A stretch of DNA of 64,000 bases, taken from a virus. Lineage: Duplodnaviria > Caudoviricetes. Position 1 is the first letter of the stretch. Every line of letters begins with the position of its first letter. Position numbers and translations under genes: made by a program. The notes below the pieces were generated by a model. The model was not told the DNA's origin and searched no databases. It saw only the letters and a program-made list of their open reading frames with translations. Where the stretch lies: IMG/VR virus record IMGVR_UViG_3300028048_000077, positions 1-64,000 of that record. One strand, given 5' to 3'. Shown one piece after another: positions 273-56,840 of this stretch.

Positions 273-925
273 TCATTCCTTTTTATATCCATATAAATCA
301 TATTCATCTTCATATAAATTATTATATTCTGGATCAAATGATTGATTAACACTAAATTCTTTAGTAATTGGCTTAGAATATATACTTAATCTTTTTATTT
401 TACAATTAGTGTAAGACCCTCCAGATACCCAAGGATCATTACCACCTATATCGAAAAACAAATTATTTATCATAGAACCTGCTGAATTTGCTACAGCACA
501 TAATTTTCCATCAGTAAAAAATCTTACAATATTTTTATTTTCAACAGATACTGTATATCTTCTCCAAGTGTTTATAGGATAACTTATACGCTGGATAATT
601 TGATCAAAATTTCTACCATCATATCCACTACTTTCTTCTATTTTAAATCCAAGATTATTTGAAGTCCAATATGCATTTAATCTTGGATAGTTGCCTTTAT
701 ATTTTATTGGGTAAATAAAATAATCTAATGTATATTCTCGTAAAGTAAAAGATTTAGTCCAATTAAAATTAAAAGTTAAAGTAGAATTAGTTAGAGTACA
801 TTCCCCCCCCCAACTGAAGGGATAGAACCATAATAACTATAGTAAGATTCGTATGTATTGAATTTATCTTTTAATGCATTAGAATTATCATTAAATTCTA
901 ATCGTGAAATACAATTAAGATTCAT
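273..925 (-). pseudogene. ConA/LamG-like protein, class A paralog, frameshifted at a G9 tract
   Basis: GGGAG SD then ATG at 925: MNLNCISRLEFNDNSNALKDK...PSVGGG. C9 at 803-811 leads to TAA three codons later; G10 opens a 217-aa frame that joins ORF 273-473 and aligns with 2086-2742. Confidence 0.85.
803..811 (-). repeat. G9 homopolymer, intragenic, out of frame
   Basis: C9 on the + strand. Confidence 0.95.
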
Positions 926-969
926 AATTTTACACTCCCATATTTAGTTTTATTCAAAGGTCAAAACAT

Positions 970-998
970 ATCCCTCTACCTATTTAAGGTAGAGGGAT
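970..998. terminator. Hairpin of the CCCTCTACC/GGTAGAGGG family
   Basis: ATCCCTCTACC-N7-GGTAGAGGGAT just after the stop of 1004-1402. Confidence 0.75.
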
Positions 999-1003
999 GT
1001 ATT

Positions 1004-7181: not shown

Positions 7182-9492
7182 AGCTTGCCATATCTACATC
7201 TTCTAATAAACAAGACAGATTGGACTGAATATCTCTAATCTCCTGAATCTGCTTCTTAATATCCTGTACAGTAAGCTGTAATAAAGCTCTGTCATAGTTA
7301 GGATGTATAGTAGATATACGCAAATCCTGAGCTGGCATTTCACCAAGACCCTTATATCTCTGAATACTGCTAGGACGGAACTTCTCAAATGCCATCATAA
7401 CATCATACAGAGTAGCTGGTTTACCATTCAGATAATAAAGCTCTAAAGAAGTATCGATATACTGATATAATGGTGCACATACAGAATACAATGTAGGAGT
7501 ACATACTATATTATAGAACTGCTCTCCTACTAATCCATCAAGTACTAAGGTTCCATTCATGTTCTTTACATCCATGAATCTATATTTAGACTTAATGAAC
7601 TTCATCATCCAGCTAATAGGTTTCTTTCTATACCTGATAAGGAACTCTAAAAGCTGAGGATCAATTGCATATGTATTTGCAAGTACAGTAAGCTCATCAA
7701 TATATGAAGCATTATTATACAGCATTGAAGTGATATCACTATTCTTAATTACCTTCTTCTTGCTATCACGAAGCTCATAAGATTTAGTAAAGCTAGTCTG
7801 AAGGAACTTAGTATAATCACTCTTATCAGTGAAGAATACTTTCTTCTTATTCTTGATAATGCTATACAAAGGTGGCTGAGCCATATATACTCTACCATCT
7901 TCAATCAGTGGTCTGAAGTACATCAAGAACAGCTTCATCAATAACTGTCTGATATTTTTACCATCTGGATCTGCATCTCCAGCGAAGATAATCTTATCAA
8001 ACTTACACTTAGAGATATCAAAATTCTTACCAATTCCACACCCAATGATGGCTGCAATACCACAGACCTCTTCATTCTTCATAACAGCTTCTTTACTGTT
8101 AGTGAATGCATTAATGATCTTTCCTCTAATAGGGAATATACCCTGCTTATTAGGATCAATTGCATCTTTCAATGAGGATACTGCAGAATCACCCTCTGCT
8201 ATGATAAGCTCTAAATTCTTCTTACCAGCAGGAGGGAAATATTTCTTAGGTAAACCAAATGCTGATACTTTCACTCGTTTGATGAAGTTAGTCTTATTGC
8301 TTTCTTCACTCAACCGTAGATCGGCAGTATCTTTGTAGTACTTACACAACCGTTGCAAGTCATTTGCATTAAACTTGCACCATTCATCTAACTGGCTCTC
8401 AAGAGTAGTCTTTATGAAAGCTTCTACACCTTCACCTGAGAATATCTCTTTAGCCTGACCAGAGAAAATTGGTTCCAAATGTGATACCGTTACCACTGCT
8501 TTCATACCAGAAAGTATATCGTTACCAATACACTTAGTCTTTCCCTTAGTTAGATAAATTTTGTTCATGTAGTTTCGGAAGTAATTACTCAATGCATTAA
8601 TGAATCCCTTAACATGCTCGGACTGACCGTTCACTGTTGGACACATGTTAGCAAATGAGATAATATCTGCTTCCTCTCCAAGACACTTGCTGTCATATGT
8701 GAATGCTATCTCACATTTAATGGTACCATTATCATCCTTAATTATAATTGGAGATATTACTGGATTATCACACTTAGCAATTAAAAATGACAGAATACCA
8801 TCCTGATTTACCAGAGTCTCTTCAATAACAGACCCATCTTTCTTTACTCCTCTGAAGTACAGTGTATTACCAACTCCTGGAGTTGTAAGGTATAATATAG
8901 TAGAAGCCAGATGTAATACATCTTCACATGTAGTATTGAGATTCTTCATTACATCTAAAGATGGAACAAATGTTACTATACTACCCTGATACTTGTTAGG
9001 ATTAGGAATCTTAACCTCACCCTTCTTCCAAGGATGACCATCATGGAATTCTACTTTTCTTGCATCTCCTGTATACAAATAGGTTTCTGCAATAAATATC
9101 TTAGAACATGCATTGGTTACCTTACTACCAACACCATGTCTTCCTGAAGAATACTCTCCAAGTTTCTTTACATAGTTAGAAGATGTATGCTGTTTAGTGA
9201 ATACTCGTTCAATGTGACCAAACGGAATACCACGGCCATTATCTCTAACCTTACACATCATAGTGTTTTCATCATACTCAAGCCACAATGAATCACATGG
9301 AGAATCTTTCTTTTCCATTTCATCGAAGCTATTCTGAATTATCTCTCGGATCATATTAATATGACCACGAGTATCATTATATCCAAGATACTGTCCTACT
9401 GTCTTTCGTACAGCATCTACGAATGATGCAATCGTTTTAATTTGATTAGCGTAATCTAAAATCTGATCTGCAAACTCTTTAGCTTTAGCCAA
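7171..9492 (-). CDS. gyrB: DNA topoisomerase IIA subunit B (GyrB/ParE-like)
   Basis: GHKL motifs EIIQNSFDE, DNGRGIP, GRHGVG; TOPRIM EGDSA, PIRGK, DADPDG; QRYKGLGEM; TTG start. Confidence 0.95.
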   Translation of the reverse strand: MAKAKEFADQILDYANQIKTIASFVDAVRKTVGQYLGYNDTRGHINMIREIIQNSFDEMEKKDSPCDSLWLEYDENTMMCKVRDNGRGIPFGHIERVFTKQHTSSNYVKKLGEYSSGRHGVGSKVTNACSKIFIAETYLYTGDARKVEFHDGHPWKKGEVKIPNPNKYQGSIVTFVPSLDVMKNLNTTCEDVLHLASTILYLTTPGVGNTLYFRGVKKDGSVIEETLVNQDGILSFLIAKCDNPVISPIIIKDDNGTIKCEIAFTYDSKCLGEEADIISFANMCPTVNGQSEHVKGFINALSNYFRNYMNKIYLTKGKTKCIGNDILSGMKAVVTVSHLEPIFSGQAKEIFSGEGVEAFIKTTLESQLDEWCKFNANDLQRLCKYYKDTADLRLSEESNKTNFIKRVKVSAFGLPKKYFPPAGKKNLELIIAEGDSAVSSLKDAIDPNKQGIFPIRGKIINAFTNSKEAVMKNEEVCGIAAIIGCGIGKNFDISKCKFDKIIFAGDADPDGKNIRQLLMKLFLMYFRPLIEDGRVYMAQPPLYSIIKNKKKVFFTDKSDYTKFLQTSFTKSYELRDSKKKVIKNSDITSMLYNNASYIDELTVLANTYAIDPQLLEFLIRYRKKPISWMMKFIKSKYRFMDVKNMNGTLVLDGLVGEQFYNIVCTPTLYSVCAPLYQYIDTSLELYYLNGKPATLYDVMMAFEKFRPSSIQRYKGLGEMPAQDLRISTIHPNYDRALLQLTVQDIKKQIQEIRDIQSNLSCLLEDVDMASFEF

Positions 9493-12342: not shown

Positions 12343-12414
12343 CTAATTCTCACTATTCATCATTAGTACTAATACTACTACAAATAATAATATGCAGATA
12401 TTGAAAAAGTTCAT
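12343..12414 (-). CDS. 23-aa hydrophobic peptide MNFFNICILLFVVVLVLMMNSEN
   Basis: AGAAGGAG SD upstream; below the ORF-track cutoff. Confidence 0.4.
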   Translation of the reverse strand: MNFFNICILLFVVVLVLMMNSEN

Positions 12415-21430: not shown

Positions 21431-21622
21431 ATTATTCCTCCTTACCCTTGTTTCAAAAATGGACTTATTATAATTATATATAATATATTACCTATTATAC
21501 CACCTATTATACTAGCAATAAATAATACTGCTAGTAAAGGCCAATCAAGCTTCTCAAACTTATCCATTCATATTTTTCCTCCATAACTATATCCCCTACC
21601 CAAAAGGGTAGGGGATAAATAA

Positions 21623-38299: not shown

Positions 38300-38419
38300 A
38301 TGGCTAATTTAATAAAGTCATTCATACGTATTAAATCAATTTGGGATTTAATATCCATAGGCGATATGATAATTCAGATAATTGATTTAATACAATATTT
38401 AATAACCCATTCTTTATAG
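38300..38419 (+). CDS. 39-aa amphipathic peptide MANLIKSFIRIKSIWDLISIGDMIIQIIDLIQYLITHSL
   Basis: Promoter motif, 13-bp leader hairpin, SD AGAAAGGAGG. Confidence 0.7.
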   Translation: MANLIKSFIRIKSIWDLISIGDMIIQIIDLIQYLITHSL

Positions 38420-42659: not shown

Positions 42660-42790
42660 TATTTAATTGATATTTTGATCCCGTACCTATATGGTACGGG
42701 ACCATTATCTTATCAAATAATTGTTAAGAAAAAAATATTATTTAAAAAAAGACCCACCATCATATGATGGTGGGGTATGCAGGGGTATAA

Positions 42791-43036
42791 TTAAGATAGA
42801 TCTACAATATAGGCAGTAATATTGTAGGGTTTATCATTTAGTTGAGAAAATATATTTACGGCTCGTACATTTTTAAAATGAGACCACATAGTTCTAGGAA
42901 TCTCTTTTCCATCTATCAAAATAGCTTCTATACGAACTCCTTTATGATTATATTCATCTGGAAGCACATATATAGTTTTCTGTCTCTGTTGAGTTTTTAT
43001 CATTTTTACTTCAATTTCATTTGTCATATAAATCAC
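42791..43036 (-). CDS. hypothetical protein
   Basis: ORF track. Confidence 0.65.
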   Translation of the reverse strand: MIYMTNEIEVKMIKTQQRQKTIYVLPDEYNHKGVRIEAILIDGKEIPRTMWSHFKNVRAVNIFSQLNDKPYNITAYIVDLS

Positions 43037-43038
43037 CT

Positions 43039-44808
43039 TTATTCATCTATAAAGTTTACAGTCAAAACAGAGTCTGGAATACGATCTGCGTAATTATAAC
43101 TACCAGTTAGAACACTTTTAAACGTATTATAATCAGTAAATACTGATCTTCTTACATTATTAAATACTAATGAAGATTCCTCACCTAATACAACATCTCC
43201 AAATAAAGTTCTAATTGAAGAATCCTGATATATACTAAATAAATCAAAATTTAATTTTACTTTAGTTAATGATCTACAACCAGAAAACATTACATACATT
43301 CTATTTACATTTCTTGTATTCCAATTAGAAAGATCTATTTCAGTTAAAGATGTGCATTTATAAAACATATAATCCATAGTTCTTACTTTACTAGTATCCC
43401 AGTTAGATACATCCACAGTAGTTAATGATGAACAGGAGGCAAATACACCATACATAGTTTTTACTTTACTAGTATCCCAATTAGATACATCTACAGTAGT
43501 TAATGATGAACAGTAATTAAATATCTGTTTCATATTTGTGACATTACTTACATCCCAGTTAGATACATCTATATCAGTTAATGATAAACAGTGATCAAAT
43601 GCGAATTCAAAACTAGTAATTGGAGAAGTATCCCAGTTAGAACTATCTATAGAAATTAGATTGCTACAATATGAAAGCATCATATCTGCATTAATAAAAG
43701 TAGTTGTATTATTTAATATTCTTTGAATATCATCATTATATGATTGATCTAATTCAGTTATATTCTTATAATTCGGAATATTTTCATATGCATAATCCTT
43801 TAGATTATTTGAAATTCTATCTTCTAATGGCCTAATATATCCATTTATATATACTTTAATCAGATCAACTATATTCATATTACCATTTATATCTTTATTT
43901 GTTTTTACCGCTTTATCAAGTGTACCATTTAAATCTAAAATTAATTTTGATTTAGTACTTATACTTCCAGTAATATCAGATATACATTTTGCAAAATGCA
44001 CAAAATTTTCCCCATTAATATCTTTTGTTATTTTACGTCCTATATTAACAGTTCCATTTAAATAACTATCAGGAGCTTTTAATACTACTAATAATTTATT
44101 ATTACATATAATATCAATATTATGCTTAGTTGGATAAAATAATCTTAAAGATACTATACAGTTATGTTTAGTAAGGAACCCATCTGGATATAAAGTATTT
44201 ATACATTCTTCTTTAGAAGTTTTTATACATGCAGAATCTATAATCATTCCATTAATATCATTTCCAATAGCATTTTTAATCTTGATAATTTCCTCAGGAA
44301 GATAGTTAAGATAGTTTAATGGAGCATCAGATGGATGTAATCCATGATCACTATTTAGCAATGTAGATAAATTATTAAAATTATATGGTCTACCATTTAA
44401 ATCTGAATAATATACAGCATTTCTATCAGTGTAATTTGAATACAAATCTGTTTTGCTTGAAGTATATACTCTAACAGCGGATCCTATAAGTTTAAATCCT
44501 TTATAATTATTATAGCTATCATTATGAATCATATAATAAAATACTTTGTCCATAGCGTCAAAGTATGAATATTCATTAGTACCAGGATTATAATTTTTCA
44601 CATGTGAATATACACAAAGTATATATTTTAATGGTTTATTTAAAGAGTATGGGTATACATTATTATCTACTTTTTCAAGTGTATATTGAACAAATATTTT
44701 TGGATTGAAAGAACTATTAGAATTTAGTGGTACGCTTAAAGGCGTACCACTCCCTTCATTTATAGTTCCAGAGCCCTGAAGAATAATTTCTCTACCATTA
44801 ATTTGCAT
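43039..44808 (-). CDS. putative fibre/adhesin: shared N-terminal domain, DING repeats and BspA/DUF285-type leucine-rich repeats
   Basis: N-terminus homologous to 46909-47892; 26-aa repeats such as F..CSSLTTVDVSNWDTSKVKTM. Confidence 0.75.
   Translation of the reverse strand: MQINGREIILQGSGTINEGSGTPLSVPLNSNSSFNPKIFVQYTLEKVDNNVYPYSLNKPLKYILCVYSHVKNYNPGTNEYSYFDAMDKVFYYMIHNDSYNNYKGFKLIGSAVRVYTSSKTDLYSNYTDRNAVYYSDLNGRPYNFNNLSTLLNSDHGLHPSDAPLNYLNYLPEEIIKIKNAIGNDINGMIIDSACIKTSKEECINTLYPDGFLTKHNCIVSLRLFYPTKHNIDIICNNKLLVVLKAPDSYLNGTVNIGRKITKDINGENFVHFAKCISDITGSISTKSKLILDLNGTLDKAVKTNKDINGNMNIVDLIKVYINGYIRPLEDRISNNLKDYAYENIPNYKNITELDQSYNDDIQRILNNTTTFINADMMLSYCSNLISIDSSNWDTSPITSFEFAFDHCLSLTDIDVSNWDVSNVTNMKQIFNYCSSLTTVDVSNWDTSKVKTMYGVFASCSSLTTVDVSNWDTSKVRTMDYMFYKCTSLTEIDLSNWNTRNVNRMYVMFSGCRSLTKVKLNFDLFSIYQDSSIRTLFGDVVLGEESSLVFNNVRRSVFTDYNTFKSVLTGSYNYADRIPDSVLTVNFIDE
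43310..43680 (-). repeat. 78-bp-period repeats encoding BspA-type LRRs (approximate limits)
   Basis: Recurrent ACTAGTATCCCA(G/A)TTAGATACATC blocks. Confidence 0.75.
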
Positions 44809-44831
44809 ATTACTGGACTCCTTCCTTTATT

Positions 44832-46061
44832 TTAAGCTTTAATTCCAAATGCCATTCCCACATCTATATCAGATAGATTTACCTGAGCATCATGGAATGC
44901 TTTCATTGATATATTTTTAAGCTTAGATGCTACCTGAGGAGTAGATACTCCTACATTGGTAATACCAATTCTATTGAATAGATTACCAGCACAAGCATGA
45001 CAAATACCATGTTTAGATTCACATAATGAAGAGAATCTAAACTTAACTTTCTTACCAATATACTTATCCACATTCTGTGAAGTAAGTTCTACAAGTTTAC
45101 CATTTTCCACAATATAAGAATACATAAGCAAACTTGCAAGTTTCTCAGTAAGATCTATTTCAATGGTTTTCTTAGTTCCACAATCTTTATTATTAGGATC
45201 AAGAGTAAGATGTTGGAATGCTTTTAAGAATAACTTCTCCCAATAACCACCGATACCTGTCTTAATACCACGAGAATATGGACCAGCAGCCAATGCTCTT
45301 GCAGTATTAGCATAGTCTTTCTTACTAATACCAGTCATATAAGAAGAAGTTACAATATTAAATCCCTTAGTAGGGTCAGGATCCTTAACTGCACCCTTCA
45401 TAACAAAGATATTCTTGAAGTTATTATCAAAAGATCCTTTAGCTCCAGAATAATACATATCCATAGCTTTATCATCTTTAAGAAGATCCTGAGCATATTT
45501 AAGAACCTCATTCTCAAAATCAATTGATGCTTTAGGATCATTTTTCTCTATTCCATCTTTATATTTACTATATAGCTCTTTCTTCTTCTTTTCAATAAAA
45601 GTAGCAGACATGAGCATTTCTTTAGAGAAAGATGGGCAATATATATTACAATATGGCATAAATTTTTGGGCCATCATATGAAATTTCTTAATAGCTTCTA
45701 AAGGAATTCTATCCTCTAAAACAGCATAAGATAATCTCTTATTAATTTCTTCTGCTACTTTCTTAGACACTGGTCTATTTACATATCCAATTACATCCAT
45801 TAAATCTTCTTCAATGAATGTTCGATTGAATATGAATAATCCAATTGTAGTAACAAAAGGTTTCTTATTCTTATGGCCTTCTTTACCAAATACTCCAGCA
45901 GGAATCTCTATGAGATCATATGTATTAAACTTTTTCTTATTACCAAATTCTCCAAAATTCTCCATAATGAAAGATGTTTTCTGCATATCATATGGAGTAA
46001 GACTAGTAAAATAGTTTACTATTTCTGGGTCTTTGATAACTTTACTTGTTCTTTTTGCCAT
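44832..46061 (-). CDS. RNA polymerase beta' C-terminal subunit, probably of the virion RNAP
   Basis: SGAKGS, bridge-helix-like KTGIGGYWEK, DCGT, C-x5-ICHAC Zn site, trigger-loop-like SMKAFH; lies in a structural operon. Confidence 0.85.
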   Translation of the reverse strand: MAKRTSKVIKDPEIVNYFTSLTPYDMQKTSFIMENFGEFGNKKKFNTYDLIEIPAGVFGKEGHKNKKPFVTTIGLFIFNRTFIEEDLMDVIGYVNRPVSKKVAEEINKRLSYAVLEDRIPLEAIKKFHMMAQKFMPYCNIYCPSFSKEMLMSATFIEKKKKELYSKYKDGIEKNDPKASIDFENEVLKYAQDLLKDDKAMDMYYSGAKGSFDNNFKNIFVMKGAVKDPDPTKGFNIVTSSYMTGISKKDYANTARALAAGPYSRGIKTGIGGYWEKLFLKAFQHLTLDPNNKDCGTKKTIEIDLTEKLASLLMYSYIVENGKLVELTSQNVDKYIGKKVKFRFSSLCESKHGICHACAGNLFNRIGITNVGVSTPQVASKLKNISMKAFHDAQVNLSDIDVGMAFGIKA

Positions 46062-46074
46062 ACAATCTCACCTC

Positions 46075-46893
46075 TTAGAAGTAGATTTGATATGTAATAT
46101 CAATACCCTTTCTTAAGTCAATTAATGGCTCATTAGGGAAGTTTAATCTTGTTATTGGACGGATGTCTTGATAATAAGTAAATCCATCAATAACTTTAGG
46201 CCAAGCAGTACAAATAGAAAGACAGTTAATTCTAGCATCATTGATACCAGTAGTAGCAATAAAGAAATCTCTACAATCATCTTTTGTAATAGAGAATTCT
46301 AAAGTTACAAATGTTTCAATTGTAGTTGGATTAGCCTTTGCCATTGTATATACAGTAGCATCAATTGGATTACCATTTGACCACTGTCTACTCAATACTG
46401 GAGGAGCATTAAAGGTTTTGAAATAATAAGCATAATATCTACTATCTATTTCTTTTCTACCAAAATAAAGTGCTCTATCAGTTGCACTCAAATCTTTATC
46501 AAGTAAAAGATACTGGAATGGAACAATAGAATCTTCATCAATCCATCTACGATAATCTACATCAAATACCTGAGAATTCTCAGTACCACATCCATCAGTT
46601 CCTACACAGAATAAAAATACCTTATTAATATCAGTAGGAACAGAATATACAGTATGCTCAAGATTTAATGCTGTATTATATGATGGAGTTATTAATGGAT
46701 CTGATAAATCAAATAAGGAAAGAGCAATAAATTCTGCACCAGGAAGAATTACTTTGTTATGGCCTTTCCAAATAACTTCTCCAGTTTCATGATTGCGAAA
46801 TGTTACTACACCTCTCATACCATCATGCTTAATAGTACTTTTATCATAAACTTGATCTTGTATATTATCAATTAATTTAAGATGTTTGTTCAT
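46075..46893 (-). CDS. putative baseplate/tail structural protein
   Basis: HNKVI...GTDG...DITYQIYF; between structural genes. Confidence 0.6.
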   Translation of the reverse strand: MNKHLKLIDNIQDQVYDKSTIKHDGMRGVVTFRNHETGEVIWKGHNKVILPGAEFIALSLFDLSDPLITPSYNTALNLEHTVYSVPTDINKVFLFCVGTDGCGTENSQVFDVDYRRWIDEDSIVPFQYLLLDKDLSATDRALYFGRKEIDSRYYAYYFKTFNAPPVLSRQWSNGNPIDATVYTMAKANPTTIETFVTLEFSITKDDCRDFFIATTGINDARINCLSICTAWPKVIDGFTYYQDIRPITRLNFPNEPLIDLRKGIDITYQIYF

Positions 46894-46908
46894 TTCTTAA
46901 TTCTCCCC

Positions 46909-47892
46909 TCAATTATTTGATTTTTCATTTAAATCTATTTCAAATTCTCCATCTAGGTCAACTTCAACCTCTACGTCAACTGTTCCCTCAATATCATTTG
47001 AAACTGATCCGAAAATATTAGCTGTTCCAGTTATTTCATCACTAACTAAGTTAATATCAAATGTTCCAGCTATAGTATACATTATCTTTCTATGAATAGT
47101 AGTTGTACCATCTATATCAACTGGTGTAGTTTCTACAGCAACATGATTTACACCATTTATATCATTATCTGGAGTCTTTACAGAAACATCAAATAATCCA
47201 CTAAAGTCAAATGGTAAAGCTACATCAGCAACATTGATTGTACCTTCCATTTCTGTATAAGTTTCTGTAGGATCAGGAATATCTGTACTTGTAGTATAAG
47301 TCAATTTACAAGTAATCTGATTAATATCATCGTATAAATAGCATGTATTTGATAATGGAGTATCATCACCAATAGTAGATTGAATTAGAGCAGTATCAAT
47401 ACATATAGAATTACATCTTTCTATTCCAAGTATATCTTTTATTTCTTGATATTTCTTTTCAGGAATTCCATTAAACTTTTCATATATAGATATATTGAGT
47501 TTAGAAATATCATTAAAAGTATGATTTCCTGGATATCTTGTACTATTATTTGCAGTAGTTTGATATATAATATCATTTGTATATATATTCTTAAGAGTTA
47601 CTGTAGTTTTAATATTTTCAGGATCTAAATAATATCTATATTTAGGATTATGTATCATATAAAAATATATTTTATCCATTGGATATGATGAATTAGTCTG
47701 GTAATCTCTTATATGAGAATATACAGAAAGAATGTAATCAACTGGATGGTTTTCATCAAATGGATATACATTTTCATCTACTTTTTCTAAATACCAAAAT
47801 ACATCAATTTTATTATATTCACCATTTATCGTGGCAGAAATGACATAATGATCATTTAGAACTATTTCTCTGCCTTTTACAATCATTGACAT
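46909..47892 (-). CDS. putative fibre-associated protein with DING repeats
   Basis: N-terminal paralogy to 43039-44808 (GREI.L, LEKVD.NVYP, YIL.VYSH, MDK..FYMIHN). Confidence 0.7.
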   Translation of the reverse strand: MSMIVKGREIVLNDHYVISATINGEYNKIDVFWYLEKVDENVYPFDENHPVDYILSVYSHIRDYQTNSSYPMDKIYFYMIHNPKYRYYLDPENIKTTVTLKNIYTNDIIYQTTANNSTRYPGNHTFNDISKLNISIYEKFNGIPEKKYQEIKDILGIERCNSICIDTALIQSTIGDDTPLSNTCYLYDDINQITCKLTYTTSTDIPDPTETYTEMEGTINVADVALPFDFSGLFDVSVKTPDNDINGVNHVAVETTPVDIDGTTTIHRKIMYTIAGTFDINLVSDEITGTANIFGSVSNDIEGTVDVEVEVDLDGEFEIDLNEKSNN

Positions 47893-47985
47893 GATTTGTT
47901 TCCCTCCTATAACTAGATAGATGGAGCAGCAAGAGCTGCTCCATATTCTAGTATTTAGCGATTATATCCATAAATGATTTTTAGA

Positions 47986-50900
47986 TTACACTATATCTAT
48001 ATTACCATTTATATTAGGTACATAACAAGTATCTGGAATATCGATATACCCGTTTATATTCATACTTACTGGAGCAAGTACGGTTATAGAACCATCTATA
48101 TCGTTACCCATATCATTTGAGCCAATACCATTAATGAAATATGTATTGGTATCTATTATTACTAGATCATTTCCATATATAGTATCAACTGATACAATGA
48201 CATCACCAGTCATATCTGCATTTACTTTAGTAGGTATTGAGATATTACCAGTTATATCAGCATTAACATCCATTAGTATATTAAATGCACCATTTATATC
48301 TATAGATGGAGCCTCTTCCTTAATTGAAATAACACCAGTCATATCATACATAACTGGTCTATCTTCCTTAATACCAATAGTACCAATGATTTCATTAGCC
48401 ATGTTCTTAGAAATAGGATTGTTATTCCAATAATAGATATTTGCTTCTGCTATTTCTACTCTACCATTAATATCAGTAGTAAATTTACCATTATATACAA
48501 CTGTATGACCAGTAATAGTATCGTAAATTGGACCTGGTTCATATACATATTTCAAAGTAAATATATCTCTAGGAGCTATAGAATCTGTATAACTAGTTGT
48601 AACTTGCATAGTTTGAACTTCTCTAGGAGATACATAATCAAGTTTATCTAAACTGATAAGCATAGTATGTACATCATTAGGACGAATATAAAGCTCTGGA
48701 TCATTTGGATTATTAAATTTCATGTTTATAGTCATTTGATATAGATATACTTTATATGATTTAAAGAAGTTAATCATAGTAAATAAGTACTCTAATAAGT
48801 ATCTTTGACTTGCACCAGGAAATTGATCATAAATATATGCAAATTCATCAGAGTCTATCCATTCGTCTAAGATATAAATAATATCCTGAATATTTTGAAT
48901 TATTGTATCTCTTTTAGAATTATCATCTTCTATAGAAGCTATACTTACAATTAAATCATGAAGAATAGGATCTTTTTCATCTAAGAACTCAGTAAATGTA
49001 GTAGCTTGAGTTCCATCTGATAATTTGAAATATTCTAAATTGAATTCCCAAATCATAAGAGAATCATGAAGCTTCTTCCAGATACACCAAATATCATATG
49101 TATTTGCATTGATTAAACCATCACAAATAGTATTATAGATATTTTTATTAGTATTGAAAGTTTCTACAAACTGATCTATATCTACAAATTCAGGATCAGG
49201 ATTCATAAATCCAAATACATCATAATCTTCTGGTCTACGTCTCTGATCAAGAATCCACTGTTTTAAAGCTCCTAAATCTGCATGGAAATTAAATCCTCTA
49301 GCATATAGAATCTCACTTGGTTTTACAAATATCTTATCTTCCATATTCTGGAATACATACATAAGTGATGTCATATAACAGAATAAATGGCCTATATTAA
49401 ACTCATGATAGTTTGATAAGGTAGATACTCTTACATTCAGTTTATTCTCTTTGAATACATCATCCCAAAGCATACTATAAAAATATGCTAATTGGAAGGA
49501 TGCTTCTGATACATCCATAAGATAATCTACAGTAAGATATTTAGTTCTAGCATAGTTAAACTTCTTTTTTAGAATAGCTCTTTTTACATCATAATATCTA
49601 CTATTGCTGGTTTTATTTGAACCATCAGGACCAAGCCAGAATTTATCACCAATGGCGAATGTATCATAGCTCTTAACATGTTCTTGTTTCTTTACTATAG
49701 TAGAAAGATTTGTAAATGTAGAAAATGGTATTCTTAAGAAGTATAAATTAAAATCATTTTCAAGATCTTCATTACCTTCTGTACCACCAGTTGCATCTAT
49801 AAATATCCATGGAGCACAATTTTTATATAAGAATGTAAATGTAAATGATTGTAATTCTTGAGCTGTATTATCATCAATAAAAGCAATAGAATCATTTACC
49901 AAATCATATGATTCTTCATTCATCCATACTTTATTATTATCAATAAACCAAGGCCAATCATTAATAATAAAATTATTGAATGGCTGTGGCACTTCAAGAA
50001 TATTATTTTGAACATCATCTATTGTTTTAGTAACTTCTTTTACAGTAATTAAATTTTCCTTTTCAAACCAATATCTTTTATTACAGAAATACAAGAAAGT
50101 TATATTTTCTCCAATAGCAGCAATATTATCAGATATTTCCATATATGGAGAATAATCTGTAATACTTCTATATATTTCTGGTACGTATAAAGTATGAGTA
50201 AATGCTAATACATCATGCCCAGTTTCTTGATATGGATAGAATGGAACATCCATCCATACTCTAATTGGATTATCATGTTTTACTATTTCAGTAGATTGGA
50301 ATATCTTAATACTATTTTCAACTTCTTCAATATAGATATATTCTACACAAAGTTTTTGTTTCAGATATGGCCTATAATCTGGATCTAAAATAGTAACCTT
50401 GTTTCCATTAAGTGTATAATCTACACCAAGTTCAAGTGGGATACCTGCAGAATCTACAATAATTTTATTTCCCTTTTCAAAATAATATGTATCAGGAAAA
50501 TCTATTATAAATTCTGATTGGAATTTAGTAGTAGCATTGTAGTATTTGTATATAGTATTAACATTGTTTTCTGTATCAGTATAATAGTAGTGGAAAGTTA
50601 TTGTATCTCCAATTTCTAATCCCATATTAAGATTAGTTAATACAAGTTTATTTCCATATACTTGATAATATGAATCATCTAAGTACCAATCCAATAATTC
50701 TACATATACTTTGAATCCTCTAGCATCATAATTACTAATAGGAGGATGTATAGTAAATTCAACTTGGTATTGAGTTGTAGCTGTAATAGTTTCACTTGTA
50801 TGATGCAAATCAATTTCTTCATATATTGAATTTTTACTATATACAAAATGGAATATAATACTTCTACCTTCTACTATCATACTAGGATTCTTAAATGTAA

Positions 50901-52689
50901 TAGTTGCATTTACATAATCTATTATATATCTTTTAGGATCTATAAATACCTCGCCCATTGTAATAAAGAAACTATTTCCATGAATAGTATAATATTTAAA
51001 TGGCTCTGGTATTTTAAATGTAGCTTGTCCATCACTAGATGCAACCACATAATCTTGATAGAATTTAGTTTGTTGATTATCACTATATACATATATTATA
51101 TTAACTTTTCTATCAGTCAAATCTATATTAGAGCTTATAGTAAGTTTATTAGTAGTACTATCCACACTATACATAGATGGATGTAAAATTAGTGTATTTA
51201 CAGATACTATAATATCATTTCCATCATTAAGATAATCTTCATATGGAAGATCTAAATCATATTCATATACAACTGGAGAAGAGTCTTCAAAGTATTGATT
51301 ATGAATTTTAATTGGATCACTAGTATCTGGATTATATTCATTATCTACGGTATTTTTATCATAATAGAATTCAAATCTAATAGTATGAGTAGATTTAGTA
51401 TTGTCTAAATCAACTTGTGCAAATTCTAATTTATCGTAATCATATATAAAATAGTTTTCTGGTAACTGTTTAATATCATCTATCCATATATACATTTTAT
51501 TTCCTTTATTAAGGAAATATAAAAATGGCCATGGTATTTCTATATTATCAAAATCAGTTATATCAGTTAAAGTTCTAGTTGTTCTCTTTAAGATAGTATT
51601 CTCTATTGAATCGATTAAATCTGTTGTTGTATATATTGGATTTCCAAAAGCATCATATTTTCTATTTCTCATTAAAAGATATTTATTAATCTCTACATCA
51701 GTAGCTTGGAAATACATAATAAGATTAAGCATATCTCTAGGAGAAGATTTATACTGAACTAAAGCATTTATATTCTTTACAAGTATAATCTGATACTTTA
51801 GTGGAATTGAATCATAGTATGGTACTCCATACATATCAAATATAAATTTACAGCATCTATTATCAAGTATATCTTTCTTAACTATTCTATCCTGTAATTC
51901 TACTACACAATCATTAATAGTAAGGAAAAGAATATACATACAAAGAAAAGCATTGTAGTGCTCAGAATTAAATTCCATAGCATCTGAATCTACAGCTCTA
52001 TCTACAAACATACGAGAAACTTCAAACTTATCATGAAATAAATCATCTATTTCTACTACTCCACAAGATTTAGAATAAAGAATCTGTTTATCTACTGCTC
52101 GTCTTGCTTTATATATATCTATACCAGCAGTAATGAAGTTTAAGTATTTTGCTTCTGGGTAATCTTGTCTGATTGCATCAAGAGCACCATACTTTTCAAA
52201 CATTCTTGCTCCATCACAACCAAGTTCATGAACATATACTGCATCCACAGTTTCATTTTCAGGAATTAAATACATATATGGAGCAACTGGTATTCCGATA
52301 TCTCCATAAGGAGGAAGACCAGTAATCATTCGATAATAGTTATTCTTTTCTTCATAATTATCTATGATATTTTTTCTTGCAACTTCTACAAGAGCTTCTT
52401 GATACTCTTCTGGTACATCTCTTATATTTGCTAGATAAATATCTATATATGCACTTGGTACACCCGCTTCTACCATCATTTCTTCGGTGTAATCATACAT
52501 AGTAAATGTACCACTACCATCCTTCGAATAAATAAACTTTTCAGCAGCAGCAGATGACTCATCGGTTTCATTAGCCAAAGCAACTGATTCGTCTTTTAGT
52601 ATACAACTATAGGCTATCTGTTGTACATAGTATATCAAGTTATCCAGAAATGGATTGTCAGTATACTTTTTCGTAATATCAAGAGCCAT
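47986..52689 (-). CDS. large virion protein (baseplate/tail-associated)
   Basis: 1567 aa; beta modules like those in 27701-31408; C-terminal DINGxxxI repeats. Confidence 0.7.
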   Translation of the reverse strand: MALDITKKYTDNPFLDNLIYYVQQIAYSCILKDESVALANETDESSAAAEKFIYSKDGSGTFTMYDYTEEMMVEAGVPSAYIDIYLANIRDVPEEYQEALVEVARKNIIDNYEEKNNYYRMITGLPPYGDIGIPVAPYMYLIPENETVDAVYVHELGCDGARMFEKYGALDAIRQDYPEAKYLNFITAGIDIYKARRAVDKQILYSKSCGVVEIDDLFHDKFEVSRMFVDRAVDSDAMEFNSEHYNAFLCMYILFLTINDCVVELQDRIVKKDILDNRCCKFIFDMYGVPYYDSIPLKYQIILVKNINALVQYKSSPRDMLNLIMYFQATDVEINKYLLMRNRKYDAFGNPIYTTTDLIDSIENTILKRTTRTLTDITDFDNIEIPWPFLYFLNKGNKMYIWIDDIKQLPENYFIYDYDKLEFAQVDLDNTKSTHTIRFEFYYDKNTVDNEYNPDTSDPIKIHNQYFEDSSPVVYEYDLDLPYEDYLNDGNDIIVSVNTLILHPSMYSVDSTTNKLTISSNIDLTDRKVNIIYVYSDNQQTKFYQDYVVASSDGQATFKIPEPFKYYTIHGNSFFITMGEVFIDPKRYIIDYVNATITFKNPSMIVEGRSIIFHFVYSKNSIYEEIDLHHTSETITATTQYQVEFTIHPPISNYDARGFKVYVELLDWYLDDSYYQVYGNKLVLTNLNMGLEIGDTITFHYYYTDTENNVNTIYKYYNATTKFQSEFIIDFPDTYYFEKGNKIIVDSAGIPLELGVDYTLNGNKVTILDPDYRPYLKQKLCVEYIYIEEVENSIKIFQSTEIVKHDNPIRVWMDVPFYPYQETGHDVLAFTHTLYVPEIYRSITDYSPYMEISDNIAAIGENITFLYFCNKRYWFEKENLITVKEVTKTIDDVQNNILEVPQPFNNFIINDWPWFIDNNKVWMNEESYDLVNDSIAFIDDNTAQELQSFTFTFLYKNCAPWIFIDATGGTEGNEDLENDFNLYFLRIPFSTFTNLSTIVKKQEHVKSYDTFAIGDKFWLGPDGSNKTSNSRYYDVKRAILKKKFNYARTKYLTVDYLMDVSEASFQLAYFYSMLWDDVFKENKLNVRVSTLSNYHEFNIGHLFCYMTSLMYVFQNMEDKIFVKPSEILYARGFNFHADLGALKQWILDQRRRPEDYDVFGFMNPDPEFVDIDQFVETFNTNKNIYNTICDGLINANTYDIWCIWKKLHDSLMIWEFNLEYFKLSDGTQATTFTEFLDEKDPILHDLIVSIASIEDDNSKRDTIIQNIQDIIYILDEWIDSDEFAYIYDQFPGASQRYLLEYLFTMINFFKSYKVYLYQMTINMKFNNPNDPELYIRPNDVHTMLISLDKLDYVSPREVQTMQVTTSYTDSIAPRDIFTLKYVYEPGPIYDTITGHTVVYNGKFTTDINGRVEIAEANIYYWNNNPISKNMANEIIGTIGIKEDRPVMYDMTGVISIKEEAPSIDINGAFNILMDVNADITGNISIPTKVNADMTGDVIVSVDTIYGNDLVIIDTNTYFINGIGSNDMGNDIDGSITVLAPVSMNINGYIDIPDTCYVPNINGNIDIV

Positions 52690-52770
52690 TTACTTCTCCT
52701 CCTTATTTGCATTACTTTAATTGTCGACCCATCTAATAATGACAAACTTTTATATAAAGGGGTGATTAAC

Positions 52771-53475
52771 GTGGATACAAATGTTAATGTACCAGATATA
52801 TATCAATACGATGATTATAATCCTACATTACATTCTCCTTCTTCTGAATTTGATATTCCTTTTGCTCAAACAAAGGAAAGTTTTATTGATGTAGAAGTAT
52901 ATAGAAAATTCTTAGAAAATGCTATTTCTAGATTTAGACACTCTAGAACATATAAAAATTATAAGTCTCATTTAATGAGTCTTGGATTGGATACTTGCCA
53001 AATACATGGAAATATTCATAGTAATGAAGATGATGAAATGGCTACTATAGAAATGCATCATAATATACTTACTATATTTGATGTGGCTCTTATATTATCT
53101 GAACATATTTTGAATACTGAAGGAAGAATTACTACATTTACTTTAGTAGATGCTCTTAAAAGAGAGCATATCAATCATAGAGTAGCTACTGTTATGCTTA
53201 CAAAAACTGTACATCAATTAGTACATGCTGACAGAGATTTTATTATTCCTCCTAGTATGTGCTTTGGAGATTGGATAAGTTTCTTACAATTATATAGAGA
53301 TGGTATTACTAGAGATATTGCATACAAACTTATGTACTATCTTCAGAATTGTATAAAAAATAATAATAAGTTGAATTCTCATACTTGTGATGCAGTAGGA
53401 CTCAGAGATTGGATACATGAATGGTCTGAGTATAATGCAAATGATGTAGTTGTATTAAGTAAAGTTACAGATTAA
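52771..53475 (+). CDS. hypothetical protein, possible HNH-like fold
   Basis: GTG start after AAGGGGTGA SD (track starts it at 52621); CQIHG...IEMHH...VMLTKTVHQLVH. Confidence 0.65.
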   Translation: MDTNVNVPDIYQYDDYNPTLHSPSSEFDIPFAQTKESFIDVEVYRKFLENAISRFRHSRTYKNYKSHLMSLGLDTCQIHGNIHSNEDDEMATIEMHHNILTIFDVALILSEHILNTEGRITTFTLVDALKREHINHRVATVMLTKTVHQLVHADRDFIIPPSMCFGDWISFLQLYRDGITRDIAYKLMYYLQNCIKNNNKLNSHTCDAVGLRDWIHEWSEYNANDVVVLSKVTD

Positions 53476-53653
53476 AAAAGAAATCACTTTTCTCTTTATA
53501 TATTACATATTCTAATAGTACTAAATCTCAAATATGTAAAAAGTTAAATTTCAAGTAACTTACGTAGTAAGAATATGAATGAAGAGGGGTCTGGGGGAAA
53601 GACTCCACAAAAAATAATCCCATACCCTAATTGGGTATGGGATATATAGTGTT

Positions 53654-53977
53654 TTATTTTGTTAATGGAATTCGTAATATAGGGGATTTTATTCCATCAG
53701 AAATAATTTTAGTTCCTTTATATCCATATTCATCTTTTAGAATATTTATAATAAATTCTACATCAATTCCTCCCCAGTCATAATTTTTTATTACGATATC
53801 TACATAATCAATTGTAGGATTAGCATCAATAGCATCCCTGATATTATCCTGTATTATATTATTTAATATATACAGTAATTCTTTACTGTTACGAATTTCT
53901 TTAAGTTTCATCTTTTTATACTTCAATGCTTCTTCTAGAGTTATTAGGATTGAGTCTTTTATCATACTATTATTCAT
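53654..53977 (-). CDS. hypothetical protein
   Basis: ORF track. Confidence 0.7.
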   Translation of the reverse strand: MNNSMIKDSILITLEEALKYKKMKLKEIRNSKELLYILNNIIQDNIRDAIDANPTIDYVDIVIKNYDWGGIDVEFIINILKDEYGYKGTKIISDGIKSPILRIPLTK

Positions 53978-54248
53978 CCTTCTTTTCTAAATATATTTTA
54001 AGAATATTTTTATCACATTCTGCTGGATATCCATATTCATCTAGCATATCTAATATTACTGATGGTAGGATATCATTTGGTAAATTAAATGTAAACATAT
54101 CTTTACCAGGATTCTTATCTATTGAATTAATCATTCTTTGTTCAATAGATTCTAATAAGCTTATATACTTATTATCCTTATACAAATTTTTAATTTTTTC
54201 ATCCCTATAGGCTCTCATTTCTTTTACAGTCATCATAATTAATATCAT
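53970..54248 (-). CDS. hypothetical protein
   Basis: ORF track. Confidence 0.7.
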   Translation of the reverse strand: MILIMMTVKEMRAYRDEKIKNLYKDNKYISLLESIEQRMINSIDKNPGKDMFTFNLPNDILPSVILDMLDEYGYPAECDKNILKIYLEKKDE

Positions 54249-54256
54249 CCTTTCTT

Positions 54257-54892
54257 TTATTCTTTAAATCTGTCTTCAATATGAATCATTTCTTCATAAT
54301 CCCATCTACTATAAAAGATTCCTCCTTCATGTTCTTCTTTATCATACTCAAGAAAATCTTTATATGTATAAATTTTTCCATCAGAAGCAAATTCATAGGT
54401 TTTAATAAATTCTATACATTTATCTAAGCCACGATTTAATAAATCTTTTGGAGATTCATTCTCTTCAGGAATTATAAATAACGCAGGATCATGACTATAT
54501 ACATTGCGATTTCTAATAAATTCATCCAATAAATCTTTTGATATTTTATCTGGATGATGTATATAAAATCTTATTTGAATTTCATTATTCTTGTACCAAG
54601 TTATATATTCAATTCTCATTTCAATAATAGTATGTACTAACGCCTGATCTTCATAATATTTACAATAAGAATAATAGTTTAATTGTTCTGCCTCATAAAA
54701 ATCACCTAGTTCATTATATTGATTTCTAACTTCACAAAACTTTTTTGCCTCTTCTTCTGTATTCATGAATGCTACAAAGAAACATGATTTAGTCACGTCA
54801 TCAATGTTAATATTATACTTAATATTATCATTTTCATCAAAGAAATCTTTATTATCCCTATCTAAATAATCTACTTCAAAAACAACAAACAT
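54257..54892 (-). CDS. hypothetical protein
   Basis: ORF track, GGAGG SD, promoter motif upstream. Confidence 0.8.
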   Translation of the reverse strand: MFVVFEVDYLDRDNKDFFDENDNIKYNINIDDVTKSCFFVAFMNTEEEAKKFCEVRNQYNELGDFYEAEQLNYYSYCKYYEDQALVHTIIEMRIEYITWYKNNEIQIRFYIHHPDKISKDLLDEFIRNRNVYSHDPALFIIPEENESPKDLLNRGLDKCIEFIKTYEFASDGKIYTYKDFLEYDKEEHEGGIFYSRWDYEEMIHIEDRFKE

Positions 54893-54962
54893 AACTATTC
54901 CTCCCTAAAAATAACTAAGTAATTTTTATAGGGAATAGCATTAAGCTACTCCCTATTCCTAT

Positions 54963-55824: not shown

Positions 55825-56271
55825 TTGTTTGTTATGTCAAAAATCGAGGAGCATGTAAAGAAGTATTATGAACTTCATGTGGAAAGTAAGGTTAAATCCT
55901 TAGAGAAAAAATTAGATGAATATATTAAATCTAATTTTCCAGATGAATATGAGAAATCTATAAGTGATTTTGAATTATTTGAAGATTCATATGATATCGT
56001 AAAATATTTCGATTTATATTCTCACCTTACTTTTATTCCTAAGCCTTTGAAATGTTCTTTCATGGGTTTTATACCTACTAAAGAAACTAGTAAGAAAGCT
56101 CATGATTATTTATTAAGTATAGTAAAAATGGCTAATTATAAATTTCCTGATTATGATTTTAAGTATCAGATTTCTGATTGTAGGTATAGACCTGTAAATT
56201 GTTCTGAATTCCATGTTGCTATGTTTATTGTAGTAGTACCAAAGGATTATAGAGATCCTAATAGATACTAA
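55825..56271 (+). CDS. hypothetical protein
   Basis: ORF track, GAGGAG SD. Confidence 0.75.
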   Translation: MFVMSKIEEHVKKYYELHVESKVKSLEKKLDEYIKSNFPDEYEKSISDFELFEDSYDIVKYFDLYSHLTFIPKPLKCSFMGFIPTKETSKKAHDYLLSIVKMANYKFPDYDFKYQISDCRYRPVNCSEFHVAMFIVVVPKDYRDPNRY

Positions 56272-56350
56272 AAAAATAAGGGTAGAGATATCTCTACCCT
56301 TAACTTTAAATTAGATACAATTTCATTTTATTTTCCCCTCAAACTAATCC

Positions 56351-56455
56351 CTAAAGGTGTAGAAAGAATTCTACAATAATTTTAATTATAGTTTCTAATA
56401 AGATATCGGCCAATACTTTTATATACTTATTAGAACCTTTAGGTATTGAGGTCAT
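56351..56455 (-). CDS. 34-aa amphipathic peptide MTSIPKGSNKYIKVLADILLETIIKIIVEFFLHL
   Basis: Promoter motif 56514-56529, leader hairpin, SD AGAAAGGAG. Confidence 0.7.
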   Translation of the reverse strand: MTSIPKGSNKYIKVLADILLETIIKIIVEFFLHL

Positions 56456-56606
56456 TTAGATCATCTCCTTTCTGAGGGGATTGGGTAGGATATAGTTCCC
56501 AGCTATATTCTACTCATATTTATAGTATATAACTAAAAATAAATAAATTAACAAAAAAGAAAGGGATGCATTGTATTGCATTCCCAGAGGAATTTGGCAG
56601 CACCCA

Positions 56607-56696
56607 TTAGATCATTTGAATTAAAATTTTTATCAATTCTATTATTAAACTTTGCAGCAAGCCTAATATGAATTGTATGAAAAATTTCATGATCAT
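56607..56696 (-). CDS. 29-aa amphipathic peptide MIMKFFIQFILGLLQSLIIELIKILIQMI
   Basis: Promoter motif 56768-56783, leader hairpin, SD AGAAAGGAGG. Confidence 0.7.
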   Translation of the reverse strand: MIMKFFIQFILGLLQSLIIELIKILIQMI

Positions 56697-56814
56697 AAGA
56701 GTATACCTCCTTTCTATATGGGTGCATGAGTAGGATATAGACGCACCTAATAATATCTATATCCTACTCATATTTATAGTATATAACTAAAAATAATTAA
56801 TATTACAAAACATA

Positions 56815-56840
56815 TCCCTCTACCCAATTGGGTAGAGGGA
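56815..56840. terminator. Hairpin family member
   Basis: TCCCTCTACCC-AATT-GGGTAGAGGGA. Confidence 0.8.

Follow-up and report, generated by a model that had tools for sequence, protein, structure and literature searches.

The first 64 kb of a 128,771-bp virus record in IMG/VR (IMGVR_UViG_3300028048_000077; 30% G+C) – the window analyzed here – carries two monocistronic cassettes on its minus strand at 56270–56815, in which a 29-amino-acid open reading frame (ORF), U2, is followed directly by a 34-amino-acid ORF, U1. Analysis of these cassettes, together with two sister cassettes in the same record that we name U3 (39 amino acids) and U4 (26 amino acids), indicates that U2 is a real micro-gene and that U1 is probably one too. 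We regard it as an evenly balanced proposition that U2 and U1 are independent, probably early micro-genes of a giant phage with its own RNA polymerase and that their peptides act on membranes – the role that we consider most likely for them.

Architecture and coding capacity of the U2 and U1 cassettes

Both cassettes are laid out in the same order: a promoter core TATACTATAAAT, a 5′-terminal hairpin, a Shine–Dalgarno (SD) sequence AGAAAGGAG(GT), an ATG 9–10 nt further on, the ORF, an 8-nt box that can pair with the leader, and a terminator. Every element of the two units described in the initial annotation was recovered in place, with the genes read from the minus strand. The features of the locus and of the sister cassettes are as follows.

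56815–56840, two-way: terminator of the upstream 259-amino-acid gene; 11-bp stem with 7 GC, of the repeated CCCTCTACCC...GGGTAGAGGG type; forms the upstream edge of the U2 module
56772–56793, minus strand: U2 promoter; TTTTTAGTTA followed by the core TATACTATAAAT (56783–56772); ~36 nt identical to the U1 promoter
56726–56771, minus strand: U2 5′-terminal hairpin; 17 perfect pairs and a 12-nt loop, beginning at the ATGA directly after the core
56718–56725, minus strand: U2 leader box GCACCCAT; 5′ half of the long-distance helix, which extends past a one-base bulge to UAGA
56705–56715, minus strand: U2 ribosome-binding site AGAAAGGAGGT; core predicted to pair locally with CUCUU (SD unpaired probability 0.05–0.20)
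56607–56696, minus strand: U2 ORF; 29 amino acids, 72% I/L/F/V/M, grand average of hydropathy (GRAVY) 1.88
56600–56607, minus strand: U2 3′ box ATGGGTGC; overlaps the stop codon; 3′ half of the long-distance helix
~56552–56585, minus strand: intrinsic terminator of U2 itself; GGGAATGCA / TGCATCCC then a T-tract; 35/39 identical to the U4 terminator
56518–56539, minus strand: U1 promoter; TTTTTAGTTA followed by the core TATACTATAAAT (56529–56518)
56482–56516, minus strand: U1 5′ hairpin; 12 pairs, two uncompensated mismatches and a 7-nt loop
56473–56480, minus strand: U1 leader box TCCCCTCA, directly 5′ of the SD
56465–56473, minus strand: U1 ribosome-binding site AGAAAGGAG, followed at once by a two-codon ATGATCTAA remnant and then by the real ATG
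56351–56455, minus strand: U1 ORF; 34 amino acids, with a polar N-terminus and then a helix with a K/D/E/K/E/H stripe at i, i+4 spacing
56334–56341, minus strand: U1 3′ box TGAGGGGA, 10 nt past the stop codon
56277–56302, two-way: terminator common to U1 and a convergent plus-strand gene of 148 amino acids
38227–38566, plus strand: sister cassette U3; promoter GATACTATAAAT, 14-bp hairpin, local anti-SD ATCTCCT pairing with AGGAGGT, and a 39-amino-acid ORF at 38300–38419
~79190, minus strand: sister cassette U4, with a 26-amino-acid ORF

The ribosome-binding sites are complementary over 9–11 nt to the presumed 16S rRNA 3′-tail sequence and are among the longest such matches in the contig (the whole record); the U2 ATG lies 10 nt after AGAAAGGAG and 8 nt after the full AGAAAGGAGGT. 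The 8-nt complementarity between leader and 3′ end that had been noted for each unit is exact, joining on the plus strand TGAGGGGA at 56473–56480 with TCCCCTCA at 56334–56341 in U1, and ATGGGTGC at 56718–56725 with GCACCCAT at 56600–56607 in U2. Leader hairpins are likewise present in both units; the size of ~13 bp first given for the two did not hold, the U1 hairpin being ~12 bp and imperfect and that of U2 17 bp.

Evidence that U2 encodes a peptide comes from its comparison with U4. In the 24 codons common to the two, 12 nucleotide differences are distributed over codon positions 1/2/3 as 5/0/7, and the Nei–Gojobori method yields a synonymous divergence (dS) of 0.77 and a nonsynonymous divergence (dN) of 0.10 (dN/dS 0.13). 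Of the codon changes, four (TTA to CTG among them) are synonymous, and the five replacements are all conservative (F/I, F/L, L/I, Q/E and I/F). Identity is 59/72 in the coding sequence versus 13/35 in the leader and 17/43 in the 3′ untranslated region (3′UTR). The initial annotation had considered that the frames might lack conservation while the flanking RNA structure retained it; for U2 we found the coding block to be conserved and the leader and 3′UTR to have diverged. Together, the codon-position pattern, the low dN/dS and the conservation of the coding sequence over its flanks argue that U2 is a real coding gene whose peptide is under purifying selection. We thus consider U2 very probably translated, and the view of these loci as genuine stand-alone units is upheld, with strong support for coding in the case of U2.

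For U1, translation is favored by a smaller degree, on the grounds of its cassette context, the ideal distance between its 9-nt SD and the ATG, and the termination of its ORF shortly ahead of the 3′ box. The two-codon ATGATCTAA that abuts the U1 SD (56456–56464, minus strand) resembles the U2 start (ATGATCATG...), a resemblance suggesting that U1 may derive from a U2-like copy through a ~10-nt deletion, the next ATG now being used.

AlphaFold2 models the U1 peptide as a single helix over residues 6–33, with a predicted local distance difference test score of 89.5. In 18-residue windows the hydrophobic moment (μH) of the peptides is 0.41–0.55, and whole-peptide shuffles give P values of 0.07–0.14. 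The peptides had been described as amphipathic helices; the hydrophobic helix stands, while amphipathicity in the two units is only moderate at these moments (shuffle P 0.07–0.11), and the U2 peptide would be better called very hydrophobic than amphipathic.

Searches for relatives of the peptides in protein collections returned nothing above threshold. U1 had no homolog among 1.84 billion protein representatives, and a four-peptide profile had no match in five related giant-phage records. Pfam gave no family match at E≤10, including the known type I toxin and small toxin families (Hok, Fst/Ldr, TisB, Ibs, ShoB, TxpA and BsrG), NCBIfam none for U1, U2 or U3, and PHROGs none for the cassette peptides. 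A DNA scan with a 20-nt word of the U2/U4 coding region had matches only in six phage contigs of 40–45% GC (L009–L014), all to one unrelated ORF family, a match that we judged probably due to chance. In those six contigs the word, shared exactly with the U2 coding region, sits inside a conserved small membrane ORF of ~34 codons (...EIQFILGF...).

A shared module and its RNA folds

The initial annotation had proposed a genome-wide search for the promoter–hairpin–SD layout; in the record, this layout also occurs at U3 and U4. When the contig was scanned blindly for hydrophobic ORFs of 18–55 codons that lie between genes and follow an SD, exactly the four cassettes and two other small membrane ORFs were recovered. 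A profile search of the contig found only the four cassettes, the nearest further candidate being a 23-amino-acid ORF at 12343–12414. About 95 nt are common to all four: an upstream terminator tail, TTTTTAGTTA, the promoter core, ATGARTAGGRTATAG-loop-CTATAYCCTAYYCA, and AGAAAGGAGG; beyond this, each has a 9–12-nt SD followed 7–10 nt later by an ATG, and its ORF closes shortly ahead of the 3′ box. The ...AGAGGGA edge of the terminator at 56815–56840 is common to U2, U3 and U4. Because U4 joins a U3-type hairpin to a U2-type coding region and terminator, the cassettes are mosaics of one shared module. The same duplicated module explains why the ‘AAAT variant’ of the promoter, remarked on in the initial annotation, goes with the cassettes.

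Some further intergenic elements were seen in the course of these scans. The 23-codon ORF at 12343–12414 (minus strand) is very hydrophobic (GRAVY 1.71), lies behind AAGAAGGAG and a degenerate promoter-like TATACTTTATAG, and sits just upstream of a full promoter at 12317. A 41-codon intergenic ORF at 21442–21567 (minus strand), also picked by the blind scan, has an SD and one clear membrane helix. A near-identical terminator hairpin, CCCTCTACCC-loop-GGGTAGAGGG, occurs at several intergenic sites (56815–56840 and contig ~87235–87265 and ~100735–100765), among them one directly after the putative anti-SD small RNA units described below; it looks like part of a repeated terminator–promoter module.

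Outside the record, the cassettes were sought around the 259-amino-acid gene that adjoins them. Synteny analysis of 80 viral loci and 12 loci in metagenome-assembled genomes that carry this neighbor (≤47% identity) showed no comparable cassette downstream, and the same blind scan, applied to the flanks of the 80 relatives, gave no hit at equal SD stringency; with the SD requirement relaxed, it gave just two ORFs. When DNA was scanned for promoter-plus-hairpin words, no relatives emerged beyond two distant ones, L017 and L018, both of which have the same promoter word. L018 carries a stand-alone unit at 714–1003 (plus strand) with an unrelated 23-amino-acid ORF behind a 9-bp anti-SD/SD hairpin and a transcript folding z-score of −6.4; L017 carries a similarly built unit at ~8780–9026 (minus strand) with an unrelated membrane ORF of 48 amino acids. 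Since both carry similarly built, strongly folded units with unrelated tiny ORFs, the cassette design may be a habit of this phage group.

The cassette transcripts are predicted to be strongly folded. Measured against dinucleotide shuffles, the full transcripts have folding z-scores of −5.4 (U1) and −7.5 (U2), and the helix between leader and 3′ end is present in both the minimum-free-energy (MFE) and the centroid structures of U1 and U2. When each start region was paired with 5,000 random genomic segments of the length of its own 3′UTR, the observed leader/3′UTR duplex had a P value of 0.038 for U1, 0.015 for U2, 0.010 for U4 and 0.84 for U3; combined by Fisher’s method, these give ~0.005 for U1 and U2 and ~0.002 for all four. 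The 5′–3′ helix is thus above chance – real, but not overwhelming on statistics alone.

Comparison of U2 with U4 adds covariation to this picture. Compensatory pair changes number two in the 5′ hairpin, one in the terminator, and three among five contiguous pairs of the long-distance helix (A-U to C-G, C-G to A-U and C-G to G-C), where the register is the same. The long-distance helix is equally far from the hairpin in both cassettes, at leader nucleotides 47–54 in U2 and 48–52 in U4, and the 3′ box begins at nearly the same point of the transcript: nucleotide 165 in U2, on the stop codon, and 171 in U4, ~19 nt past the stop. U4 has in addition an extra 10-bp helix over the start codon. Because the double changes keep pairing in hairpin, terminator and long-distance helix alike, the RNA structure, too, is under selection. 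Each ORF is itself a long hairpin (composition-matched z-scores of −2.6 to −4.6), with which the synonymous U2/U4 changes are wobble-compatible. A search of Rfam 15 gave no match at the gathering score, the best score being 30.8 bits against 60 and all eight lying far below threshold.

We next compared the accessibility of the SD and AUG in full-length and truncated transcripts by partition-function folding. Only in U4 does the 3′ region hide the SD and AUG, the SD unpaired probability falling from 0.61 in the truncated to 0.11 in the full-length transcript. The U1 SD is about half open (0.28 truncated, 0.45 full-length), and a weak local AGGAG/CUCUU hairpin engages that of U2 irrespective of the 3′ end (0.05 full-length versus 0.09–0.20 truncated). 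U3 uses a 7-bp local anti-SD instead. Neither SD nor AUG is predicted to be occluded by the 5′–3′ helix in U1 or U2, so an inert full-length mRNA of the hok or aapA1 style is not predicted for these two cassettes.

Genome setting, promoter class and expression

The record, which CheckV estimates at 52% completeness, is a fragment of an uncultured giant phage: it encodes RNA-polymerase beta/beta′-like subunits, a topoisomerase II and a Dda-like helicase, and the 259-amino-acid gene adjoining the cassettes has relatives in many phage contigs of 230–260 kb. Through this neighbor, strains 72–97% identical were also detected.

Within the window, an 18-nt promoter word at ≤3 mismatches has 9 matches versus 1.4 expected, all on the minus strand. 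The full consensus – the core plus RTGA – occurs at 24 promoters in the contig. The motif precedes the genes for the Dda-like helicase, topoisomerase II/GyrA and an RNA polymerase beta′-like protein. No copy of the full consensus occurs in 42,700–54,900, a block with a virion structural protein, where only three one-mismatch cores were found, inside genes. The presence of the motif at replication and transcription genes, its absence from the structural block and its resemblance in type to the AR9 motif suggest that this promoter class is probably early. Within the block that lacks an early-type promoter, a 589-amino-acid protein with DUF285/BspA-type leucine-rich repeats (43039–44808, minus strand) adjoins the RNA polymerase beta-like genes.

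The leader hairpin had been listed as a trait of the two units; it proved to be common across the promoter class. An MFE of ≤−10 kcal/mol over the first 55 nt was found at 11/24 full-consensus promoters versus 15% of random segments, and the stems often take in the ATGA that adjoins the core. Of the two arms, the 5′ one consists of the conserved, initially transcribed sequence, to which the 3′ one has evolved a match. This fit implies a transcription start at, or adjacent to, ATGA, and transcripts with a hairpin at the terminus.

RNA evidence was available as assembled contigs of RNA libraries from bovine gut, four of which hold parts of the window; parts without contig cover (U1 in run X1, plus-strand genes) are uninformative. 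In run X2, a 422-nt contig matches 56316–56726 exactly and is joined to Illumina adapter at 56726 – the exact 3′ foot of the U2 hairpin. Either a stop of the reverse transcriptase on minus-sense RNA or a processed 5′ end of such an RNA would account for this junction; DNA carry-over would not. A 167-nt contig from run X1, made from the same sample, covers the body of U2 (56574–56740). With the locus covered by contigs from these RNA libraries, its transcription is likely, and since the X2 contig bridges the U2 terminator into U1, some read-through of that terminator is likely as well. Matches of 19–25 nt between other RNA contigs and AT-rich promoter flanks were assigned to other loci.

Candidate roles and relation to known systems

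Drawing these observations together, we propose that the transcript of each micro-gene would start at the ATGA that follows the promoter core or no more than one or two bases from it, that its terminal hairpin would most likely shield the 5′ end from 5′-end-dependent RNases, and that the strong ribosome site would drive translation of a single-helix hydrophobic peptide of 29 or 34 residues. Once the stop region is transcribed, an 8–12-bp helix between the leader 5′ of the SD and sequence at or after the stop would close the ORF into a loop, and the hairpin-folded ORF together with this closing helix would yield a compact, rod-like mRNA – a fold that may temper or time translation and stabilize the message, though it would not be a complete lock. 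The peptides would insert in the host cytoplasmic membrane soon after infection and perturb the membrane or a membrane protein, which would serve host takeover or the exclusion of competing phages. Within the genome, the cassettes may have spread by duplication or recombination of the terminator–promoter–hairpin–SD module. A further role raised at the outset, addiction, is a poor fit for units that stand behind an apparently early promoter class in a giant phage equipped with RNA polymerase genes of its own.

Several points weigh against this proposal. No homolog of the U1 or U2 peptide was found outside the contig, whether by tblastn against 50,697 phage records, in the ESM Atlas, in the genomes of five related giant phages or in flanks syntenic among 80 relatives, and conservation rests on a single paralog pair, U2/U4. 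U1 lacks a paralog: its peptide resembles those of U2, U3 and U4 no more closely than shuffles do, for which reason we dropped peptide homology among them. Two mismatches in the U1 hairpin are uncompensated. The U1 GRAVY of 0.86 is matched or exceeded by a third of random 25–40-codon ORFs in this AT-rich genome, a background test after which hydrophobicity was dropped as evidence for U1. The RNA-library contigs may contain DNA, and they do not set strand, true ends or levels. Early timing, transcription start, membrane insertion and any toxicity are all features that we infer. Finally, the very strong promoter and SD argue for an abundant product, unlike tightly silenced type I toxins.

A further question is whether the cassettes could instead belong to a regulated toxin–antitoxin (TA) circuit. 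No antitoxin RNA had been identified in the initial annotation, and our search for cis antisense promoters also found none: no phage-type promoter occurs on the plus strand at ≤3 mismatches, and sigma-70-like sites are at chance level (3 versus 5.1 expected). A candidate acting in trans was sought among putative small anti-SD RNAs encoded ~30 kb away, by pairing them with 122 SD-bearing start regions of the contig. One putative small RNA (sRNA) unit at contig 87126–87226 (plus strand) has two anti-SD boxes, CACCTCCTTTCT and TCATCTCCTTTCAATTC. The start region of U1 is its best predicted partner of the 122 (−32.4 kcal/mol), with U3, U2 and U4 ranking 4th, 7th and 8th; contiguous complementarity reaches 12 nt for U1, U3 and U4 and 11 nt for U2, compared with 7 for the median start region, and the box that pairs with U1 lies in a predicted single-stranded part of the sRNA. 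Taken with an mRNA layout that fits type I toxin descriptors, this would fit a trans-acting, type I TA-like circuit in which mRNAs for toxic peptides would be held by phage anti-SD sRNAs that pair with AGAAAGGAG-type sites and so time synthesis. However, the second sRNA box has longer complementarity to the ordinary genes starting at 85290 (14 nt) and 24414 (13 nt) than to U1 (12 nt), and a gene of 233 amino acids equals U2. With one sRNA box presumed to mimic the 16S rRNA 3′ tail, the ranking is for the most part another expression of the length of the cassette SDs, the longest in the contig; moreover, the four cassettes share one 5′ module and are not independent, and the expression and pairing of the sRNA are predictions. 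We therefore consider such a circuit rather improbable, and grade equally low the standing of the anti-SD sRNA, which we treat as a lead and not as an antitoxin. Slightly less probable again is the fuller scenario of a lytic giant phage with a TA-style circuit in trans, in which micropeptide mRNAs with maximal SDs would be gated by anti-SD sRNAs and self-closing folds and membrane perturbation would be switched on or off at a set time.

Other readings change the nature of the product rather than its control. The peptides might be non-toxic small membrane or adaptor peptides that modulate a specific host or phage membrane protein and cause no general damage. Their hydrophobic single-helix character would be the same, strong, constitutive-looking expression signals would fit a stoichiometric binder, purifying selection has preserved polar residues (K, Q, G, S, E, K) in both U2 and U4, and the similar cassettes of L017 and L018 carry small membrane ORFs of their own; set against this, no partner is identifiable, and elaborate mRNA folding is more typical of products that are dangerous if mistimed, which leaves this explanation unlikely. 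Alternatively, the structured RNAs could themselves be the functional products – regulatory, decoy or possibly dual-function – with the U1 ORF an incidental or decaying copy. The exceptional folding of the transcripts, the hairpins within the ORFs and their preservation by synonymous U2/U4 changes all agree with such an RNA role, as do the absence of coding-specific support for U1, its two-codon ATGATCTAA remnant and its weakened hairpin. Yet the complete lack of second-position changes and the dN/dS of 0.13 cannot come from RNA structure alone, the spacing from SD to ATG and the end of the ORF before the 3′ box are kept in all four cassettes, and Rfam offers no match; we judge an RNA product distinctly improbable. 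Lysis-timing peptides (holin-, antiholin- or pinholin-like), or secreted peptides resembling phenol-soluble modulins (PSMs) or bacteriocins, are also small hydrophobic helices, and the one NCBIfam hit for U4 is to PSM-alpha, at 12.3 bits and thus below the cutoff of 33. With that profile score below its cutoff and whole-peptide moments not above shuffles, the peptides did not group with the phenol-soluble modulins or delta-toxin. Nor did they group with holins or a lysis cassette: they are shorter than known holins, lack a charged C-terminal tail and have no PHROG match, the neighboring genes scanned match no lysis family or other known function (Pfam, PHROGs), and it is replication and transcription genes, rather than late ones, that the promoter class accompanies. 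A role of this sort is highly improbable. The reading that we prefer is that of independent micro-genes for membrane-acting peptides, at the even confidence given above.

Giant phages hold hundreds of unannotated early genes, and ORFs this short are skipped by gene callers. The cassettes bring a whole family of stand-alone micro-genes into view, and in one pair of them purifying selection on the peptide is clear and is accompanied by covariation within three RNA helices. Should the peptides act on the membrane, they would amount to a compact, early device for host takeover or exclusion, and their mRNAs, if the proposal is true, would be a natural instance of the type-I-toxin fold-back design outside bacteria and plasmids. 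The cassettes supply clean, testable parts – a giant-phage promoter, a 5′ stabilizer hairpin and a maximal SD – and the possible link to anti-SD sRNAs gives a concrete hypothesis for what those RNAs regulate.

The cassettes can be compared with several known systems. Small toxins of Escherichia coli such as TisB and DinQ are inner-membrane helices; like the cassette peptides, they have 26–29 amino acids and a Leu/Ile-rich helix in which a small number of charged or polar residues are separated by roughly one helical turn. They differ in being under SOS control with a divergent sRNA antitoxin, in place of the phage promoter here, and share no detectable homology with the cassette peptides. Hairpins at mRNA 5′ ends also have precedents: 5′-terminal stem-loops stabilize mRNAs in the ompA leader of E. 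coli and the ermC and aprE leaders of Bacillus subtilis. In those leaders as in the cassettes the hairpin takes up the very 5′ end and leaves no more than a short single-stranded overhang, if any; the hairpin described here differs in that it seems to be built by adding the complement of a conserved initially transcribed sequence (ATGARTAGG...), and this across a whole promoter class.

Type I toxin mRNAs are described by a 5′ stem-loop, SD/anti-SD pairing, 5′–3′ long-distance pairing and a terminator (T1TAdb, PMC8594479), and in hok/Sok of plasmid R1 and aapA1/IsoA1 of Helicobacter pylori the toxin mRNAs have 5′–3′ pairing and are inert at full length (PMC5416894). The cassettes resemble hok and aapA1 in encoding a hydrophobic peptide of ~30 amino acids on a monocistronic mRNA with a 5′ stem-loop, a terminator and a leader-to-3′-end helix, and in their SD/anti-SD pairing, local in U2 and U3 and through the 3′UTR in U4. 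In contrast to those systems, no antisense RNA gene was found opposite the cassettes, the U1/U2 helix adjoins the SD and is not predicted to hide it, the promoter is very strong and so is the SD, and the carrier is a giant phage and not a chromosome, plasmid or prophage; a sequence relationship was not detected in Pfam or NCBIfam. The type I toxin-like mRNA architecture recognized in the initial annotation therefore holds for the layout, which matches the descriptors. Because an antitoxin is missing, the lock is not predicted for U1/U2 and no family matches, type I TA membership is not established.

In their genome dynamics the cassettes recall the PeSL cassettes of T4-like phages, in which composite terminator/early-promoter motifs flank and shuffle small ORFs of unknown function (PMC2839356, PMC4122927). 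A ~95-nt terminator-plus-early-promoter module likewise flanks small orphan ORFs at four dispersed sites, and the U4 mosaic is as expected of modular exchange. The phage lineage and promoter type are different, however, recombination is a conjecture for the cassettes, and their module also carries a transcribed 5′ hairpin and an SD. In their transcription signals they recall the early promoters of AR9 and phiKZ-like phages, which are served by a virion RNA polymerase, injected in the case of AR9, and have an extended, conserved AT-rich motif (PMC5312081); here too a highly conserved, extended AT-rich motif occurs a few dozen times per genome before replication and transcription genes. The consensus is TATACTATAWAT-ATGA here versus AAATATATATTAT-N6-G in AR9, and as the hairpin complementarity reaches ATGA, transcription may start closer to the motif than in AR9.

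The cassettes are thus new micro-genes of a known general kind with a type-I-toxin-like mRNA design, rather than a demonstrated toxin–antitoxin system. Their closest analogues would be, for function, type I toxin genes with fold-back mRNAs together with TisB and DinQ; for genome dynamics, the PeSL cassettes; and for transcription signals, the AR9 early promoters.

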